Assembly: GCA_963788645.1 (NCBI GenBank)
Contig: CAWBHF010000021.1
Location: forward strand, 3,410 to 67,409
Reading direction: 5' to 3'
DNA: 64,000 nucleotides
From: an uncultured Acidobacteriota bacterium
GTDB taxonomy: Bacteria; Acidobacteriota; Terriglobia; Terriglobales; Acidobacteriaceae
The position numbers and the translations under genes were made by a program. Within the stretch, counting starts at the first letter, position 1; each line of letters begins with the position of its first letter. Shown here piece by piece: positions 11,509 to 38,540 of this stretch. The notes under the pieces are model-generated. The model searched no databases, was not told the DNA's origin, and worked only from the letters and a program-made list of their open reading frames with translations.

Positions 11509-12258
11509 ATGGAAAACAAAGGGCTCCAAGTCGTGCAGTCTGGCGAGCGGACGAATAGCGAAGGAAAACCAGTCAGCAATCTGATTCTTCTATCGCTCTC
11601 CGATAGTGACTACAGCTCACTGCGTCCTCATCTCGAATACGTCAGTTTGCCTAACCATCTGGTTCTTCACGAGGGGAGTGGAAAGGTGGAATTCGCGTAT
11701 TTCCCGAATCGAGGTTTGATTTCTCTTGTTGTCGTAATGAAAGACGGGAGGACCGCCGAAGCCGGCATAGTCGGCAATGAGGGCTTTATCGGAACCCCGG
11801 CGGCTGTTGGCTTGAGCAGGAGCCCGCTTCAAGCGGTGGTACAAATCACGGGGGACGGGTTTCGGGTAGAGGTTGCAGCTTTGCAAGACACGTTGGAATC
11901 CACTCCACCCCTGCAATTGATGTTGAGCCGCTATGCAGTGGTTCAGGGAATGCAGGTTGCACAAACAGCCGCGTGTAATCGGCTGCACGATATTCAGCAA
12001 CGCCTTGCACGGTGGTTGCTAATGACACAAGACAGAGTGGATTCAGAGTCGCTGCCGATTACCCATGACTTTCTCGCAACCATGCTAGGGACAGATAGGC
12101 CTACCGTGAGCTTGGCAGCTGGTGCTTTGCAGAAGAAGAAGCTCATCGCGTACGCCCGTGGCGCGGTGAAGATCGTGAACCGCAAGAAACTTGAAGACTC
12201 CGCCTGCGAGTGCTACGGGATTACCCAACAGTACAACGGCGAGCTGGGATTGAAATAA
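11509..12258 (+). CDS. Crp/Fnr-family transcriptional regulator
   Basis: 249 aa. It has a cNMP-binding-like beta-barrel (VLHEGSGKVEFAYFPNRGLISLVVVMKDGRTAEAGIVGNEGFIG) and a C-terminal HTH (ITHDFLATMLGTDRPTVSLAAGALQKKKLI). Confidence 0.9.
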   Translation: MENKGLQVVQSGERTNSEGKPVSNLILLSLSDSDYSSLRPHLEYVSLPNHLVLHEGSGKVEFAYFPNRGLISLVVVMKDGRTAEAGIVGNEGFIGTPAAVGLSRSPLQAVVQITGDGFRVEVAALQDTLESTPPLQLMLSRYAVVQGMQVAQTAACNRLHDIQQRLARWLLMTQDRVDSESLPITHDFLATMLGTDRPTVSLAAGALQKKKLIAYARGAVKIVNRKKLEDSACECYGITQQYNGELGLK

Positions 12259-12383
12259 GTCCGCAGCTGAAGCCACCACCAATAAAACTCTACGTGCACC
12301 CTGTGGTTCGGCGGAGTCACAGAGCATCGCTTCTGGTCACGAACCGTGCCACTCTCGACCGCGATTTTCTTCAAAAGCAAAAG

Positions 12384-12399
12384 TGTGCACTTTTGAACA
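12384..12399 (+). promoter_or_regulatory. Box 1 of a 16-bp inverted repeat (TGTGCACTTTTGAACA), a Crp/Fnr-type operator candidate
   Basis: Fits TGT-N10-ACA. Exactly 21 nt later comes TATTAT (12421-12426). The geometry matches a class II activator site centred near -41.5. Confidence 0.5.
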
Positions 12400-12429
12400 G
12401 TCGTTCTGCTTTTGCCAATGTATTATTCG

Positions 12430-12562
12430 ACCCGTTCGACAGAGCAGTCATGGGTTGGTGTCGATTGACAGTGTCGACGTCGGACCCTCACGACGGCTCT
12501 ACTTTCTGTCCCCAAACGCGCGCGTCATCAGGCCGGACTCCCAAAGTCCGGCCCTTTTCTTC
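12430..12562 (+). ncRNA. Candidate small RNA, copy 1 (ends approximate)
   Basis: Lies downstream of the box 1 promoter and ends in the hairpin GGCCGGAC-TCCCAAA-GTCCGGCC (12531-12553) followed by CTTTTCTT. It is homologous to 15338-15474. The only shared ATG is not followed by a conserved ORF. Confidence 0.5.
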
Positions 12563-12714
12563 GGTTTGATGCTGCTTTCAGCTACCTGCTTACAAAACGG
12601 AAATCCTGAATTAGCGAATGTGATCAATACTGCGCAGACCGTGACGTATGCGCTTGTATAGAGTGCCGAGTGAACGTTGCACACTCAGGAATCAAAACGA
12701 AGAAGGGACAATCT

Positions 12715-14383: not shown

Positions 14384-15235
14384 TTACGCCGCTGACTTCC
14401 GCATGGCTTTCATGTAGCTGTCCATTGACTGGGTCAACTGGGCGTCCACCTCGTCCGCGATTGTCATGACGTCAGGTAACACCAGGCTGAAGTCCAGAGA
14501 TTCCAGATTGATCTGCAATGTTCCGAAGATCGTCACCTGGAGTATTCGCGATTCATGCACCAGCATCGCTGGAGTGTAGCCTTGCAGATATCGCAGCTTT
14601 CCATGAGCCACGGCCGCGGCGGAAAAGACAGCATCGCTGTCCTTGTCCGTCGCCCGGGGCTTGCCCAGGCGGAGCGCCAGGTCTTCAACCAGCTTGGGAA
14701 GATGTCCCGTGCGATCTTCATCGCTAAGCGAAATGCGGTTGAGTTCACTGCTCTGTTTTGCCCGCTTCAACCAGGTCTGAACGATTCCGGCACTGCACCG
14801 CAGCAGGATCGCGCCCACGCTCTCCTTGTCCACTCGTTTACCGGGTTTGCGATGTACCACCTTCTCTCGGACCAGATCGATGAACCGCCCGATTTCGAAT
14901 GGCTTTACGACGATTTCGTCCGCCTCTAATAGGATGGCTGCCATTGCGCTTTGCACGTCAGGGTAGCCGCTGACCAGCATGGTCAACGCATTCGGTTGGG
15001 AGTGGCGCATGGCTGAGACTACAGTAAATCCGTCGCCCGGGTTGGGCATGTGGAGGTCCGTGATGAGCACGTCAAAACTCTCAGTCGCGATTCTTCTCAG
15101 AGCTTCTGTCACGCTGGAGGCAGCAACTACTTCAAATCCCTTGCGTTCAAGCCCTTGGCTCATCATCGCAAGTACCGCGCTATCGTCATCTACCAGCAGC
15201 ACTCTATGCGCAGTGGGTGGATCGGTCGAAGTCAT
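14384..15235 (-). CDS. Response regulator (REC domain) with an uncharacterised C-terminal domain
   Basis: 283 aa. RVLLVDDDSAVL...FDVLITDLHMPNPGDGF...TMLVSGYPD...IVVKPF is a canonical receiver. The C-terminal ~150 aa have no recognised DNA-binding motif. Confidence 0.9.
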   Translation of the reverse strand: MTSTDPPTAHRVLLVDDDSAVLAMMSQGLERKGFEVVAASSVTEALRRIATESFDVLITDLHMPNPGDGFTVVSAMRHSQPNALTMLVSGYPDVQSAMAAILLEADEIVVKPFEIGRFIDLVREKVVHRKPGKRVDKESVGAILLRCSAGIVQTWLKRAKQSSELNRISLSDEDRTGHLPKLVEDLALRLGKPRATDKDSDAVFSAAAVAHGKLRYLQGYTPAMLVHESRILQVTIFGTLQINLESLDFSLVLPDVMTIADEVDAQLTQSMDSYMKAMRKSAA

Positions 15236-15291
15236 AGAGCACGCCTCTGGTCACGGATAGTGCCAGTCTAAAAGATCTTTGTTTTCAAAAC

Positions 15292-15307
15292 TGTGCAATT
15301 TTGAACA
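15292..15307 (+). promoter_or_regulatory. Box 2 of the 16-bp inverted repeat (TGTGCAATTTTGAACA)
   Basis: The arms TGTGCAA / TTGAACA are near-palindromic. 21 nt later comes TACCAT (15329-15334). Confidence 0.5.
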
Positions 15308-15337
15308 GTCGTCCTATTTTGGGCAACGTACCATTCC

Positions 15338-15474
15338 GCATGTTCGATCGAGCGGTCATGGGTTAGTGTCGGATCAATAGTGGCGACGTTCGGACCCTCA
15401 CGACTGCTCTACTTTCTGTACCCTGAACGCACGTTTGTTGTCAGGCCGGGCCTCCCTCAGGTCCGGCTTTTTTG
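15338..15474 (+). ncRNA. Candidate small RNA, copy 2 (ends approximate)
   Basis: Homologous to 12430-12562. It ends in GCCGGGCC-TCCCTCA-GGTCCGGC (15445-15467) followed by TTTTTT. The next gene is convergent, so this cannot be a 5' leader. Confidence 0.55.
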
Positions 15475-15571
15475 AGAACTCAACGCGACCCCGCCGTCCG
15501 ACACTGACGGCGTCAAGCCGACTTCGCCTCTCGAAGTTCAGATCGTACGTCTCAATGGAAGTATGCGAGAG

Positions 15572-16255
15572 CTAGTCGTGGAGAACAACGTTGAGCAGTG
15601 AACTGTGGACTTGCAATCCGCCTTCAATACCGCCGGCGTATTGAATGAAACCCAGTTTTCTGAATCGATTCATGAAAAAGCTAACCCGCGAACGCGTGGT
15701 TCCAACCATGTCTGCCAGCGTTTCCTGACTTATCTTGGGGACGACGGTCTCGGGCACACCTTCCTTGCCAAAATGAGCCAGCAATAGGAGAACGCGGGCC
15801 AGTCGTTTTTCACTAGAATTGAACAATTGATCAACCAGATCTTCTTCATAGCGGATGTTCCGCGACAGCAAATACGCCACGAACATATCGGAAAACGCAT
15901 GTTCGCGATGGAGGGCTTCCATCATTGCCTTCTTGTCGATACGCAGAAGCGCGCAATCGGTCATTGCAGCCGCGGAACCCATGCGCAGCGCCTGGCCTGC
16001 CAGCGCACCCTCCCCAAAGAAGTTTCCCTCACTCAGCATTCCTATGGTAGCTTCTCGGCCGGTCTGGGATACGACGGTGAGCTTCACCTTGCCGGCCTGG
16101 ATGTAGAAGACGGCGTCCGCCCCATCTCCCTGGGCGAAGATCGTTTGCTTCTTGCCGACAGCCACATTTTTCCTGCCATCGCCAATCGTTGCGAGAAAGG
16201 TGGTGGGATCGAACTCTCGCCTATTCTTGCCGTTCGTTGCTTTAGGAGGGCTCAT
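15572..16255 (-). CDS. Crp/Fnr-family transcriptional regulator
   Basis: 227 aa. IFAQGDGADAVFYIQAGKVKLTVVSQTGREATIGMLSEGNFFGEGAL is the cNMP-binding part. ISQETLADMVGTTRSRVSFFMNRFRKLGFI is the HTH. Confidence 0.9.
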   Translation of the reverse strand: MSPPKATNGKNRREFDPTTFLATIGDGRKNVAVGKKQTIFAQGDGADAVFYIQAGKVKLTVVSQTGREATIGMLSEGNFFGEGALAGQALRMGSAAAMTDCALLRIDKKAMMEALHREHAFSDMFVAYLLSRNIRYEEDLVDQLFNSSEKRLARVLLLLAHFGKEGVPETVVPKISQETLADMVGTTRSRVSFFMNRFRKLGFIQYAGGIEGGLQVHSSLLNVVLHD

Positions 16256-16419
16256 GTTAGTCGTAATTCTAGTCCAAAGGAACCGTTAATTGGCATAAAT
16301 CGTGCCTAAAGCCAGAGGCAATCTCTTTTTGGTCCGGGGTTCCAAAGTGAGCCATTCTGCTCAGTATTTCGCGAACAGATGGACGATTCTCAAGAGTTCG
16401 GGATCAAGTGGAGGCTTCT

Positions 16420-16851
16420 ATGGCACACGAAGTTCAAGTCGGAACGATTCTGATTAAGGAAAATCCGGGCATGGCGCAGGCGATTGGGTTCCAAAGTGAG
16501 CCCTACTCATCCAACTGGGGAGTAGTCAAGACGCTCGATGGCTTGGCTCTCGATCGCGAGATCCATGCCGCGGGATGGAACTTCTTCTTCATGGCTGCAC
16601 AGGTGAAGGTAACGTTCTTCGGTGCAATCGAGACGAAGAGTATCCAGAACGCGGTGGGGCGAATATTGGGAAAACTGAAGCCAATGAATTTTAATTGTCT
16701 TGAGGTCACCGGAATCGTAGCCAAACGATTTCTGGGTGTGCCGTATACAGTCATTTCGGCGCATTCGCGCCATATCCAACAAGGTTGCTGCCTCGACGGC
16801 GTCGATGAACGAGGGCGATTTCACTACGATCCCGAGCAAGCCCGAGGTTGA
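16420..16851 (+). CDS. Hypothetical protein
   Basis: ORF 16408-16851; the ATG at 16420 lies 6 nt after GTGGAGG. No recognisable domain. Confidence 0.55.
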   Translation: MAHEVQVGTILIKENPGMAQAIGFQSEPYSSNWGVVKTLDGLALDREIHAAGWNFFFMAAQVKVTFFGAIETKSIQNAVGRILGKLKPMNFNCLEVTGIVAKRFLGVPYTVISAHSRHIQQGCCLDGVDERGRFHYDPEQARG

Positions 16852-17121: not shown

Positions 17122-17137
17122 TGTGCAATTTTGATCA
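17122..17137 (+). promoter_or_regulatory. Box 3 of the 16-bp inverted repeat (TGTGCAATTTTGATCA)
   Basis: 21 nt later comes TATTCT (17159-17164). It lies upstream of the 17384 gene, with a ~210-nt leader. Confidence 0.45.
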
Positions 17138-17383
17138 GTTCATTCATTTCAGCCTCGCTATTCTTGTAGCTCCGTATCAGTTAAGTCCGTCCGCGAAATC
17201 GTTGTGAGCGTTATTGACCAGACGTGACGAGCCGCGAAGTGAGAATGTCATAGCAGAACTGTTTGCGAGCGAGACAAAACTTGCACTACGTTTCGTTCGG
17301 CAATCGCGCCTCTCCATCCACGCAACCCGCAGCAGCAGAGCATCACCGGGCAAGCCAAGGATGACCAGGCAAAAGGAAGCACA

Positions 17384-18547
17384 ATGCGTTTCATCCCTTC
17401 TATTCGTTCGTTGTTGTTCGCGCTCGTAATGCTAGCCGTCTCGGCTGCGGCGTTCGCGCAAATCGGCATATCCATTACCATCGCCCCTCCAGCGCTGCCC
17501 GTGTATGAGCAGCCACCCCTCCCCGCGCAGGGCTATATCTGGACACCTGGCTACTGGGCCTACAGCCAGGGCGATTATTACTGGGTGCCAGGCACGTGGG
17601 TGATGGCCCCGCAAGTCGGCTTCCTCTGGACTCCGGGCTATTGGGGTTGGAACAATGGCGGATACGCTTTCAATGAAGGCTACTGGGGTCCTCACGTGGG
17701 TTTCTATGGCGGAATCAATTATGGCTACGGCTATACCGGTGAAGGTTACCAGGGCGGGCGCTGGGACCACGGGCAGTTTGCCTACAACCGTTCGGTGAAC
17801 AACGTGAATGTCACCAACATTCACAACACCTATAACACCACAGTGATCAACAATACGACCGTAAACCGGGTGAGCTACAACGGCGGCAACGGGGGACTCA
17901 CTGCCCGTCCCAACTCGGAACAAGAGGCTGCAGCGCACGAGAAACATATCGCGCCGGTCGCGGTTCAGACTCAACATGCCCAGGCTGCACGCGCGAACCC
18001 GCAGCAGCGGGCTTCCGTGAACCAGGGCAAGCCGGCCATCGCAGCTACTCCCAAACCGGGAGCATTTAGCGCCGGCGTACCGGCCAAGGAAGCAGGAGCG
18101 CCGTATAAACCTGAAGGCAAGAGTGCGGTCGCTCAGCCCTCGGCAAAGACGCCACCTGCTCGGTCGGCGAACAACGTTCCTCGACCTGGCACTGCGGAGC
18201 GCAGTACTCCAGAACCGAGCAATGAAGCGCCTCGTCCAACGACTGCACCGGAGAAGGCAACTGCGCCGCGTCCGGAGAACACGCCGCGTCCGGTAGAGAA
18301 CGCCTCTCGGAATGAAAGCAAGCCTCAACCGCAAGGCGCTCCACACCCAGAAGCCGCTCCTCGTCCAGAGACCGCTTCGCGTCCGGAGAATGCTCCTCAT
18401 CCAGAAGCCGCGGCCAAGCCCGAGAATACGCCGCGTGCTGAAGGCCAGGCTCATCCGGAGGCTGCTCCCAGGGCTGAAGCCCGTCCAGAGAATGCTCCTA
18501 AGCCAGAAAAAGAGGCTGCTCCAGAAGAACGGCGACAACAGCAGTAA
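17384..18547 (+). CDS. Secreted YXWGXW-repeat protein with a Pro/Glu/Ala-rich low-complexity C-terminal half
   Basis: 387 aa with a signal peptide. GYIWTPGYWAYSQGDYYWVPGTWVMAP..GFLWTPGYWGWNNGGYAFNEGYWG are WxxGxW-type repeats. The C-terminus carries degenerate PENAPxPEAA repeats. Confidence 0.85.
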   Translation: MRFIPSIRSLLFALVMLAVSAAAFAQIGISITIAPPALPVYEQPPLPAQGYIWTPGYWAYSQGDYYWVPGTWVMAPQVGFLWTPGYWGWNNGGYAFNEGYWGPHVGFYGGINYGYGYTGEGYQGGRWDHGQFAYNRSVNNVNVTNIHNTYNTTVINNTTVNRVSYNGGNGGLTARPNSEQEAAAHEKHIAPVAVQTQHAQAARANPQQRASVNQGKPAIAATPKPGAFSAGVPAKEAGAPYKPEGKSAVAQPSAKTPPARSANNVPRPGTAERSTPEPSNEAPRPTTAPEKATAPRPENTPRPVENASRNESKPQPQGAPHPEAAPRPETASRPENAPHPEAAAKPENTPRAEGQAHPEAAPRAEARPENAPKPEKEAAPEERRQQQ

Positions 18548-37761: not shown

Positions 37762-38050
37762 GGGTGCCCCATCCTGACGTCGCAGAATAGCCCGATCCAA
37801 CCCGAAAAGGTCAGTCATCCTGAGCGGAGGCGTCGTTCGCGAAGCGAATGACGCCGCAGTCGAAGGATCCCGCTGCGGCCAGTTCAATCGACAGGCCTCA
37901 GGGAATTCTCACAGTCAGAGCTAGCGGCAATCTGGTGGGAACGCCTTTTCACATCATCGCGCGCGGGTGCCCCATCCTAACGTCGCGGAAATAGTCCGAT
38001 CTTAACCTCACTCTAGTTCTGCGACGTTTAGGGTGGGGATTTTGACCTTC
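37762..38050 (+). repeat. Composite ~289-bp repeat, unit 1 (MITE-like, with internal inverted repeats)
   Basis: Near-identical to 38255-38540. It contains GGGTGCCCCATCCT(G/A)ACGTCGC twice in forward orientation and once inverted (GCGACGTTTAGGGTGGGGATTTT), plus a GTCATCCTGAGCGGAGGCGTCGTTCGCGAAGCGAATGACGCC hairpin. Confidence 0.8.
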
Positions 38051-38254: not shown

Positions 38255-38540
38255 GGGTGCCCCATCCTAACGTCACAGAATAGTCCGATCCAACCCGAAA
38301 AGGTCAGTCATCCTGAGCGGAGGCGTCGTTCGCGAAGCGAATGACGCCGCAGTCGAAGGACCCCGCTGCGGCCAGTTCAACCGACAGGCCTCAGGGAATT
38401 CTCACAGTCAGAGCGAGCGGCAATCTGGCGGGAACGCCTTTCACATCATCGCGCGGGTGCGCCATCCTAACGTCGCCGGAAATAATCCGATGCCAATCTC
38501 ACTCTGGTTCTGCGACGTTAGGGTGGGGATTTTGACCTTC
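38255..38540 (+). repeat. Composite ~286-bp repeat, unit 2
   Basis: Direct repeat of 37762-38050 with a 493-bp period and only scattered substitutions and 1-3-nt indels by eye. Confidence 0.8.

Follow-up and report, generated by a model that had tools for sequence, protein, structure and literature searches.

Regulators of the CRP/FNR family drive the small RNAs (sRNAs) CyaR, FnrS, and NsiR4 from sites at −41.5, which is also the position of the site in class II CRP- and NtcA-activated promoters (PMC6166021). These RNAs, CyaR (activated by CRP) and FnrS (activated by FNR) of Enterobacteria and NsiR4 (activated by NtcA) of cyanobacteria, are free-standing sRNAs that end at intrinsic terminators and act as post-transcriptional arms of their regulons (PMC6166021). 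The locus described here is copy 2 of a unit present twice in the window (the whole 64,000-nucleotide stretch of DNA analyzed). It resembles these systems in that its Crp/Fnr-type box is centered at a predicted −41.5, a −35 hexamer is lacking, and its terminator carries a U-run. In contrast to them, the family to which it belongs has no sequence or structural homology to CyaR, FnrS, or NsiR4 and no Rfam match; conservation in it is strongest in a structured 5′ domain of 60 nt and not in a seed, and this domain also occurs behind two other types of promoter. The symmetrized consensus of the family box, TGTTCAA-N2-TTGAACA (that is, TGTT-N8-AACA), differs from the consensus sites of CRP, FNR, and NtcA.

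The box of Clr, the cAMP/cGMP-dependent Crp-like regulator of Sinorhizobium meliloti, is the palindrome TGTT-N8-AACA (PMC5498481). The family box fits this outline, and the regulator encoded next to copy 2 (15572–16255) has a good cNMP-binding domain and lacks an N-terminal Cys cluster of the FNR type. However, the family box has A at position 6 and T at position 11, unlike the relaxed Clr consensus (HGTYHCNNNNGRWACA), and the neighboring protein is no Clr ortholog: its best NCBIfam matches fall far below the cut-offs.

Two acidobacterial noncoding RNA motifs, Acido-1 (RF01686) and Acido-Lenti-1 (RF01687), were found by comparative genomics and are presumed to be free-standing (PMC2864571). 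The family described here shares the phylum, the presumed free-standing nature, and the manner of discovery, but neither model matches the copy 2 unit, even at E-values up to 10. In one related locus (L066), Acido-Lenti-1 is detected at 2727–2773, away from the core.

Sibling sRNA families such as Qrr1–5, the cia-dependent csRNAs, and the alpha-proteobacterial CcsR/cuckoo RNAs have several paralogs per genome under a common regulator. They carry C/U-rich unpaired stretches that are able to pair with ribosome-binding sites, and their conserved block is the pairing region. The family examined here likewise has several copies per genome, sometimes in tandem (L037). Its conserved block, in contrast, is a closed domain of three helices, and the putative pairing region varies by subfamily.

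Anatomy of copy 2 and its promoter

Copy 2 (15292–15473) and its two neighbors consist of the following features.

15292–15307, no strand: Crp/Fnr-type palindromic box TGTGCAATTTTGAACA, imperfect in that six of its eight half-site pairs are complementary
15329–15334, + strand: −10-like hexamer TACCAT of the sRNA promoter, separated from the box by a spacer of exactly 21 nt (15308–15328)
15265–15270, − strand: mirrored −10-like hexamer TAGACT of the predicted response-regulator promoter, 21 nt off the other box edge
15341–15473, + strand: predicted sRNA transcript of ∼133 nt, with a putative start 7 nt past the −10 hexamer and a putative end at the U-tract
15350–15409, + strand: conserved structured core (covariance model R1, 67.9 bits)
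15350–15357 pairing with 15402–15409, + strand: core helix P1
15360–15364 pairing with 15393–15397, + strand: core helix P2
15367–15371 pairing with 15384–15388, + strand: core helix P3
15410–15444, + strand: C/U-rich linker UACUUUCUGUACCC...CGCACGUUU, unpaired in the consensus fold, a candidate seed or protein-binding stretch
15445–15473, + strand: intrinsic terminator with a GC-rich 9-bp stem, a 5-nt loop, and U6, taken from the minimum-free-energy fold and the consensus fold
14384–15235, − strand: divergent response-regulator gene with REC and RsbRD_N-like domains, the conserved syntenic partner
15572–16255, − strand: convergent Crp/Fnr-family gene with cNMP_binding and HTH_Crp_2 domains, candidate activator of the box

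The elements that the first-pass annotation had described for copy 2 (a 16-bp repeat, 21 nt, TACCAT, a body, a GC stem, and TTTTTT) were all found in place. Its view that the unit stands free, and is no cis-acting 5′ leader, also holds: the downstream gene converges on the unit in the window, in L002, L004, and L007, and in many other loci. Copy 2 is a free-standing gene with promoter-like and intrinsic-terminator signals, the promoter being a prediction from sequence.

In the terminator, 15445–15453 pairs with 15459–15467 (nine pairs, including one G.U) around the loop CCCTC, and the tail TTTTTT occupies 15468–15473. A simple terminator scan listed the terminator of copy 1 and did not flag the copy 2 hairpin, the call for which is based on the minimum-free-energy fold together with the consensus fold of an alignment of 23 homologs. 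The stem covaries among homologs (for example, CCGAAC/GUUCGG and CCAGAC/GUCUGG).

The unit is noncoding, since 1-nt indels in the alignment of copies 1 and 2 break all reading frames and since the frame that opens at the sole conserved ATG of copy 2 (ATG-GGT-TAG) meets a stop after two codons. A coding reading was rejected on the same frame shifts between the copies and because the AUG of the conserved AUG-GGU-UAG is UGG in copy 1 and in several homologs. No tRNA or tmRNA genes were detected by ARAGORN in the 64-kb window.

The box is a palindromic dimer site of the TGT-N10-ACA type, and family members are preceded by 45 different versions of the box. Among the matches listed, a box followed after 20–22 nt by TAnnnT lies upstream of 110 of 203 members, versus 1.4 in shuffled sequences. 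The end of the −10 hexamer lies 20–29 nt ahead of the GUCAU of the core, which leaves no more than a short 5′ leader ahead of P1. The box center of copy 2 (15299.5) lies 41.5 bp away from each of the two predicted transcription starts (∼15341 and ∼15258); a box at −41.5 would fit the class II geometry of CRP/FNR promoters, given a predicted start 7 nt after the hexamer. A sigma-70 scan found no canonical promoter at copy 2 and no −35 hexamer at a spacing of 16–18 nt.

The copy 2 promoter looks bidirectional, since the box lies 21 nt from both TACCAT and the mirrored TAGACT; the simplest reading would be one regulator dimer serving two divergent promoters. The mirrored hexamer is kept in the aligned loci as TAGACT, TAAACT, or TAATCT at 20–22 nt, and it is found in 13 of the 38 box promoters with enough upstream sequence, versus a chance fraction of 0.065. 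We rejected a sigma-54 reading of the conserved upstream TGGTCAC..GTGCCA, which has a poor −12 and falls within the response-regulator gene's 5′ UTR.

The box is one of several ways in which family members are preceded by promoter-like sequence. Approximately 49 other members among the matches listed have a sigma-70-like promoter (−35 TTGCC or TTGTC with a 17-nt spacer), of which shuffles give two, and these promoters sit inside a conserved CTACGGnATTCGCTGTATTGCC element. The family as a whole has three or more classes of promoter, and its members also differ in their 3′ parts.

The RNA family and its conserved core

We searched the GTDB species-representative genomes with a degenerate pattern taken from the conserved center and found 76 stretches, all in Acidobacteriota MAGs (Terriglobales, Acidobacteriaceae, Candidatus Sulfotelmatobacter, and Candidatus Acidiferrales), often with several copies per genome. 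A purine/pyrimidine-degenerate pattern found at least 120 stretches in JGI soil metagenomes and none in IMG/VR viral contigs. After removal of duplicates, the GTDB and JGI matches listed comprise at least 201 cores in at least 193 loci; the search patterns fixed part of the core sequence, a constraint that the family counts and the conservation values carry. The family numbers at least 190 copies and, within reach of pattern searches, is confined to uncultured soil Terriglobia. The first-pass annotation had named a lack of conservation outside this genome as grounds for giving up its proposal. Homologs were found in both GTDB and JGI data, and because the family extends far beyond this genome, that objection falls away.

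No Rfam 15 family matches the window at the gathering threshold. With E-values up to 10, the region 15150–15650 yields snoRNA noise only, and in 18 related loci no Rfam match overlaps a core. We found no description of this RNA family in the literature searched, and on regulatory RNAs of Acidobacteria or Terriglobia nothing relevant beyond the computationally predicted Acido-1 and Acido-Lenti-1 of a 2010 motif survey. Genes of this kind, in which a transcription factor drives a small RNA, are already known; the family itself is absent from Rfam 15. Judged from sequence, copy 2 appears to be a real gene for a structured small RNA of ∼133 bases, with transcription itself predicted.

In the window, the R1 covariance model finds exactly two sites, copy 2 (67.9 bits) and copy 1 (58.1 bits). 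No other site in the window exceeds 16 bits, and the opposite strand of copy 2 reaches 8.9 bits. The core has ∼60 nt and in all members takes the form GCGGUC-AU-GGGUU-AG-[P3 hairpin]-RUUC(N)-GACCC-UCAC-GACCGC. The internal loops AU, AG, UUC(N) (UUCG in copy 2), and UCAC are >95% invariant. The same is true of most of P1 and P2, the sequence of which is conserved beyond the needs of pairing. P3 is variable in sequence and in length (12 to ∼40 nt), with GNRA-like loops frequent at its tip. This pattern of a conserved center with a variable peripheral helix resembles that of an aptamer, and a modular, nearly invariant core of this kind is unusual among sRNA families.

The helices are supported by covariation. 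In an alignment of 106 metagenome sequences, 94% of cells are in standard pairs, versus 27–44% when the partners are slid, the covariation alignments having been fitted to the covariance model. Eight pairs show double-sided changes in the same alignment among the matches listed. Variation in P1 and P2 is visible because the second search pattern permitted transitions there: among the matches listed, nearly all variants keep the pairing, for example GGGUU/GGCCC, GGGUC/GACCC, and AGGUU/GGCCU in P2 and GUA...UAC in P1. The main exception is GGGCU/GACCC, with a C.A mismatch, in four of 120 matches listed. At the basal pair of P3, the matches listed have U.G (n = 49), C.A (n = 42), U-A (n = 9), and C-G (n = 4); the swap between U.G and C.A is the pattern that would be expected if wobble geometry is preserved.

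The consensus fold of 23 full-length members consists of the core with an 8-bp P1, then an unpaired linker of ∼35 nt, and then a 10-bp GC-rich terminator with a U-run. Among members of the window's own subfamily (type i), the first 10 nt of the linker (UACUUUCUGU), which are unpaired, are 81% conserved, compared with 34% for the terminator loop and 94–99% for the invariant core segments. Over the family as a whole, conservation is highest in the 5′ core, and the linker changes from one subfamily to another.

The core is a module used in several contexts, as its varying surroundings indicate: it stands behind different promoter types, two cores are adjacent in L038 and L042, two whole units lie in tandem in L037, and 33 of 206 members among the matches listed have a U-run immediately after the core, so that in these members the core itself looks like a terminator. 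We also considered an antiterminator, in which CGGACC of the core would be able to base-pair with the terminator's 3′ arm, and dropped it because the match is lost in members with UUCAGACCC or UUCGACCC.

Neighboring genes and the origin of the two copies

The tightest syntenic partner of the sRNA is the divergent response-regulator gene, with which it shares the box. An ortholog of that gene is divergent from the sRNA in every locus fetched by way of the protein and in 16 aligned loci, at an offset of about −113 nt in loci of the window type and of −83 or −121 nt in loci of the TGTATAAAAGTGAACA type. Each of the contigs encoding orthologs 86–94% identical to it has an sRNA homolog divergently upstream, and proteins 93–95% identical to it belong to MAGs that NCBI names Terriglobales bacterium.

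In box-type subfamilies, a Crp gene 54–94% identical to that of 15572–16255 is usually nearby. A Crp-family ORF lies within 2.5 kb in 33 of 101 box-type loci versus seven of 88 others (P = 3e-5, Fisher's test, on loci that are phylogenetically non-independent). The suggestion that sRNA and Crp/Fnr gene are syntenic in relatives is borne out to this extent, as an enrichment of Crp genes beside box-type copies, and it is the response regulator rather than Crp that forms the tightest partner. Immediate downstream neighbors vary, with a GerE-type regulator in L002, an integrase in L004, and Crp genes in L006 and L007. L030 has a second box between the sRNA terminator and crp, a position that suggests autoregulation of crp.

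The other copy in the window, and a gene fragment beside it, have the following layout.

12384–12558, + strand: copy 1 of the sRNA unit, with box 12384–12399, TATTAT 12421–12426, core 12440–12502, and terminator 12531–12553
12277–12327, − strand: relic of the 5′ end of a response-regulator gene, ∼50 nt, upstream of copy 1, with its start ATG changed to GTG

Copy 1 (12378–12558) and copy 2 are 78% identical across 188 nt (BLAST E = 4e-34), and the spacer from box to TATTAT is 21 nt, as in copy 2. The similarity between the two copies spans ∼12277–12560 and stops short of the Crp gene of 11509–12258. The duplicated segment contains the sRNA, its promoter, and the response-regulator stub of ∼50 nt and no Crp gene, and the window's two Crp proteins share no more than 21% identity (E = 0.057). 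The proposal that regulator and sRNA were duplicated together as modules is contradicted by these data: since the similarity takes in the stub and ends before the Crp gene, what was copied along with the RNA unit was a fragment of the response-regulator gene and not Crp. The order Crp1, copy 1, ice-binding-like gene is found again in L007, L018, and L028, which indicates that the duplication is old.

Boxes are concentrated in this part of the window. There are six with three or fewer mismatches in the window versus 0.62 expected, and a weight matrix derived from the boxes gives 14 matches versus 3.9 for shuffled sequence; nine of the 14 fall in the stretch from 9.8 to 20.4 kb. The following matches lie ahead of other genes.

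12621: ahead of the ice-binding-like gene, beyond the copy 1 terminator
14084: ahead of a REC-like gene
17122: followed by TATTCT at exactly 21 nt, ∼210 nt before a WXXGXW-repeat gene
20384: ahead of a glycosyltransferase gene

The position of the box at 12621, past the copy 1 terminator, implies that the ice-binding-like gene has its own promoter. Families that recur around the RNA in other genomes are REC, Crp, ice-binding-like, Ysc84, WXXGXW, Ser/Thr kinase, and ECF sigma. Two loci, L004 and L050, share an alternative 3′ extension of ∼370 nt, and an integrase adjoins one of them; integration of a mobile element into the 3′ end of the sRNA was considered for these loci, and no attR-like copy of the terminator was found.

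Proposed function and competing explanations

The explanation that we think best, and consider probable by a modest measure, is that copy 2 is an independently transcribed sRNA gene of ∼133 nt in a Terriglobales (Acidobacteriota) genome, activated by a Crp/Fnr regulator, the product of which acts in trans by base-pairing. A dimeric regulator of the Crp/Fnr family, most likely the neighboring cNMP-binding type, would bind the box at 15292–15307 and from this class II site (−41.5) would switch on both divergent promoters together. Transcription from the TACCAT promoter would give the sRNA, and that from the TAGACT promoter would express the REC/RsbRD_N response-regulator gene. The sRNA transcript would end at the intrinsic terminator ahead of the convergent crp, and the RNA would be the trans-acting post-transcriptional arm of the regulon. 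Its linker (UACUUUCUGUACC) would most likely pair with purine-rich ribosome-binding regions of mRNAs, and the 5′ domain would be a reusable module that binds a partner or stabilizes the RNA. The observed anatomy, conservation, covarying secondary structure, promoter geometry, and synteny are best read as those of a trans-acting regulatory RNA, and it is from these that we infer action in trans. Pairing through the C/U-rich linker is favored by analogy with CyaR, FnrS, and NsiR4, as a presumptive mechanism.

A search of the 64-kb window for complementarity to the seed found chance-level 9–11-mers only. RNAduplex energies of the linker against neighboring translation starts in 17 loci were noisy, with a weak and inconsistent hint for the ice-binding-like gene, which ranks first or second in approximately five small loci and 16th and eighth of 59 in the window. 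Given this poor rank in the window and the noisy energies, we make no claim for the ice-binding-like gene as a target.

One observation counts against base-pairing: a core that is most conserved together with a linker that is variable is the reverse of what is seen in most base-pairing sRNA families. Because it is the core, and not the linker, that is most conserved family-wide, the core is indicated as the functional heart of the RNA, and the pattern of conservation favors the core itself as the putative functional part. The strongest competing explanation, which we judge rather unlikely, goes further and takes the invariant core of ∼60 nt as the functional unit, a protein-binding or protein-sequestering RNA or a ligand-sensing, aptamer-like one, with base-pairing secondary if it occurs. 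The core alone is common to all of the ∼200 members, with their three or more promoter classes and differing 3′ parts, and its internal loops and helix sequences are kept as described above. The isosteric U.G/C.A covariation implies a precise three-dimensional geometry, P3 with its variable length and GNRA-like loops behaves like the peripheral helices of aptamers, and the side-by-side cores and direct U-runs are also in keeping with a self-sufficient core. However, the neighborhood (response regulators, Crp, ice-binding-like, Ysc84, WXXGXW) offers no candidate ligand or protein, there is no single class of downstream gene as would be expected of a riboswitch, the GGA motif of CsrA-type sponges is not conserved, and the linker is moderately conserved in the window's subfamily. 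A riboswitch or cis leader in the strict sense was set aside, as copy 2 is followed by a gene of the opposite strand and downstream genes are heterogeneous across the family.

A wider formulation, which we put forward tentatively as a possibility, is that the core is a new, self-contained RNA domain specific to Terriglobia, an aptamer or a protein handle, and that the family consists of modular riboregulators, each joining this sensor or handle to an effector. The core would then be fused to Crp-box promoters or to sigma-70-like ones (the CTACGG..CTGTATTG element), to varied seeds or tails, and in some cases to another core.

Both antisense control of crp in cis and a pure DNA repeat are less likely than an RNA in which the core is the functional unit. 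Action in cis could take the form of read-through antisense to crp, of overlap with the crp 3′ UTR, or, where crp lies downstream on the same strand, of a leader or attenuator. The Crp gene does converge on the unit, ending ∼145–240 nt past the core, in the window and in L007, L018, L071, L078, and L043, and it lies on the same strand 149 nt past the core in L030, L035, L039, and L076; read on the minus strand, the terminator hairpin lacks a U-run, and crp transcripts might thus enter the sRNA gene. We nevertheless consider action in cis improbable. About half of the family has no such neighbors, and the gene downstream is variously the GerE-type regulator (L002), the integrase (L004), or, for copy 1, the ice-binding-like gene. 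The terminator is strong (9–10 bp and a U-run) and is conserved with covariation. Moreover, the crp gene of L030 has its own box between terminator and start codon, as has, at 12621, the ice-binding gene beyond copy 1.

Least credible is a DNA repeat without RNA function (a duplication relic, a REP/MITE-like repeat, or a recombination site), to which the several copies per genome, the local duplication carrying a gene stub, and the two members with an alternative 3′ end, one adjoined by an integrase, might point, but the compensatory and wobble-preserving changes fit an RNA fold of one strand (8.9 bits in reverse versus 67.9), a −10 hexamer at fixed distance lies upstream and same-strand terminators lie downstream, no terminal inverted repeats or target-site duplications were seen, and viral contigs gave zero matches.

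Terriglobia are among the most abundant soil bacteria, and the trans-acting sRNA proposed here provides them with a widespread and well-defined noncoding RNA family, the members of which are found cleanly by a covariance model. The predicted circuit is a concrete one, in which a Crp-type box and two divergent promoters would lead to a response regulator and an sRNA. Around it the outline of a regulon island emerges (ice-binding-like, Ysc84, WXXGXW, and DUF5670 genes), which could be traced in metatranscriptomes, and the structured RNA domain, unusually invariant as it is, invites biochemical study. Should the RNA prove to be an ordinary base-pairing sRNA, the catalogue gains a solid entry; an RNA whose core binds a ligand or a dedicated protein would represent a new class of RNA.

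Boxes and repeats in the window

Scanning with a weight matrix for the box, the Crp/Fnr-type 16-bp palindrome that precedes a TAnnnT hexamer, gave 14 matches across the window, compared with 3.9 in shuffled sequence. Besides a third strong box, we find further intergenic matches, clustered within 9.8-24.3 kb:

17122-17164: third strong box, TGTGCAATTTTGATCA, with TATTCT after a spacer of exactly 21 nt
9850, 9938, 12621, 14084, 20384 and 24242: additional intergenic weight-matrix matches

Given this excess over shuffles and the clustering, the matches suggest a regulon island. The box at 17122 lies ~210 nt upstream of a gene encoding WXXGXW repeats (17384-18547), a distance that would imply either a long leader or a separate transcript. 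Through the box at 12621, the ice-binding-like gene has a predicted promoter of its own, distinct from copy 1 of the small RNA.

Three further features of the window involve repeated or relic sequence:

12277-12327, minus strand: relic of the response-regulator gene (its first ~50 nt), upstream of copy 1
16337-16358 and 16486-16507: direct repeat of 22 nt, its copies 91% identical
37824-37859 and 38317-38352, minus strand: repeated hairpin CUGCGGCGUCAU...ACGACGCCUCCGC, two identical weak matches to the covariance model

The relic, in which the start codon ATG has become GTG, is found just beyond the end of the Crp gene (stop at 12258), and is contained in a spurious 80-aa ORF (12085-12327) that overlaps this gene. 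The direct repeat surrounds the point where a conserved 143-aa ORF adjoining the other Crp gene begins; within the first copy of the repeat is TGAGC-N6-GCTCA (16347-16362), a perfect inverted repeat similar to a box variant. The two hairpin copies, 493 nt apart, each score 12 bits with the model and have no relation to the small RNA family.

The base of P3

One pair of the three-helix core varies in an unusual way among family members:

15367 and 15388 (columns 21 and 70 of core alignment A6): pair at the base of P3

The pair switches between U.G, present in 49 sequences, and C.A, present in 42; Watson-Crick combinations are few. Such isosteric wobble covariation implies that a particular three-dimensional geometry is required.

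Arrangement of family members in related loci

Tandem arrangements and alternative 3′ ends occur in related loci, and two known RNAs lie several kilobases from cores:

L038 3918-3980 and ~55 nt following: pair of complete cores, directly adjacent
L042 7127-7189 and ~55 nt following: pair of complete cores, directly adjacent
L037 3006-3186: two whole small RNA units in tandem
L004 5448-5823 and L050 3234-3609: ~370-nt extension in place of the canonical GGCCGGAC terminator
L066 2727-2773: Acido-Lenti-1 RNA (RF01687), 45.5 bits
L047 639-1008: tmRNA gene

The paired cores of L038 and L042 begin 13 nt past a same-strand ice-binding-like ORF, and would be tandem elements in a 3′ UTR or a 3′-derived RNA. 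In L037, the second unit lacks its own box, and no terminator separates it from the first. The ~370-nt extensions of L004 and L050 are 78% identical; in L004, a phage-type integrase gene adjoins the family member and the seed-like CUACUUU is duplicated.

A second promoter type

Upstream of cores that lack a Crp-type box, about 49 related loci carry a conserved promoter element, CTACGGnATTCGCTGTATTGCC, an inverted TACAG..CTGTA overlapping a -35 TTGCC:

L020 3060-3140 and L022 990-1060: examples of the CTACGGnATTCGCTGTATTGCC element

Its presence at these cores points to their probable control by a different regulator.
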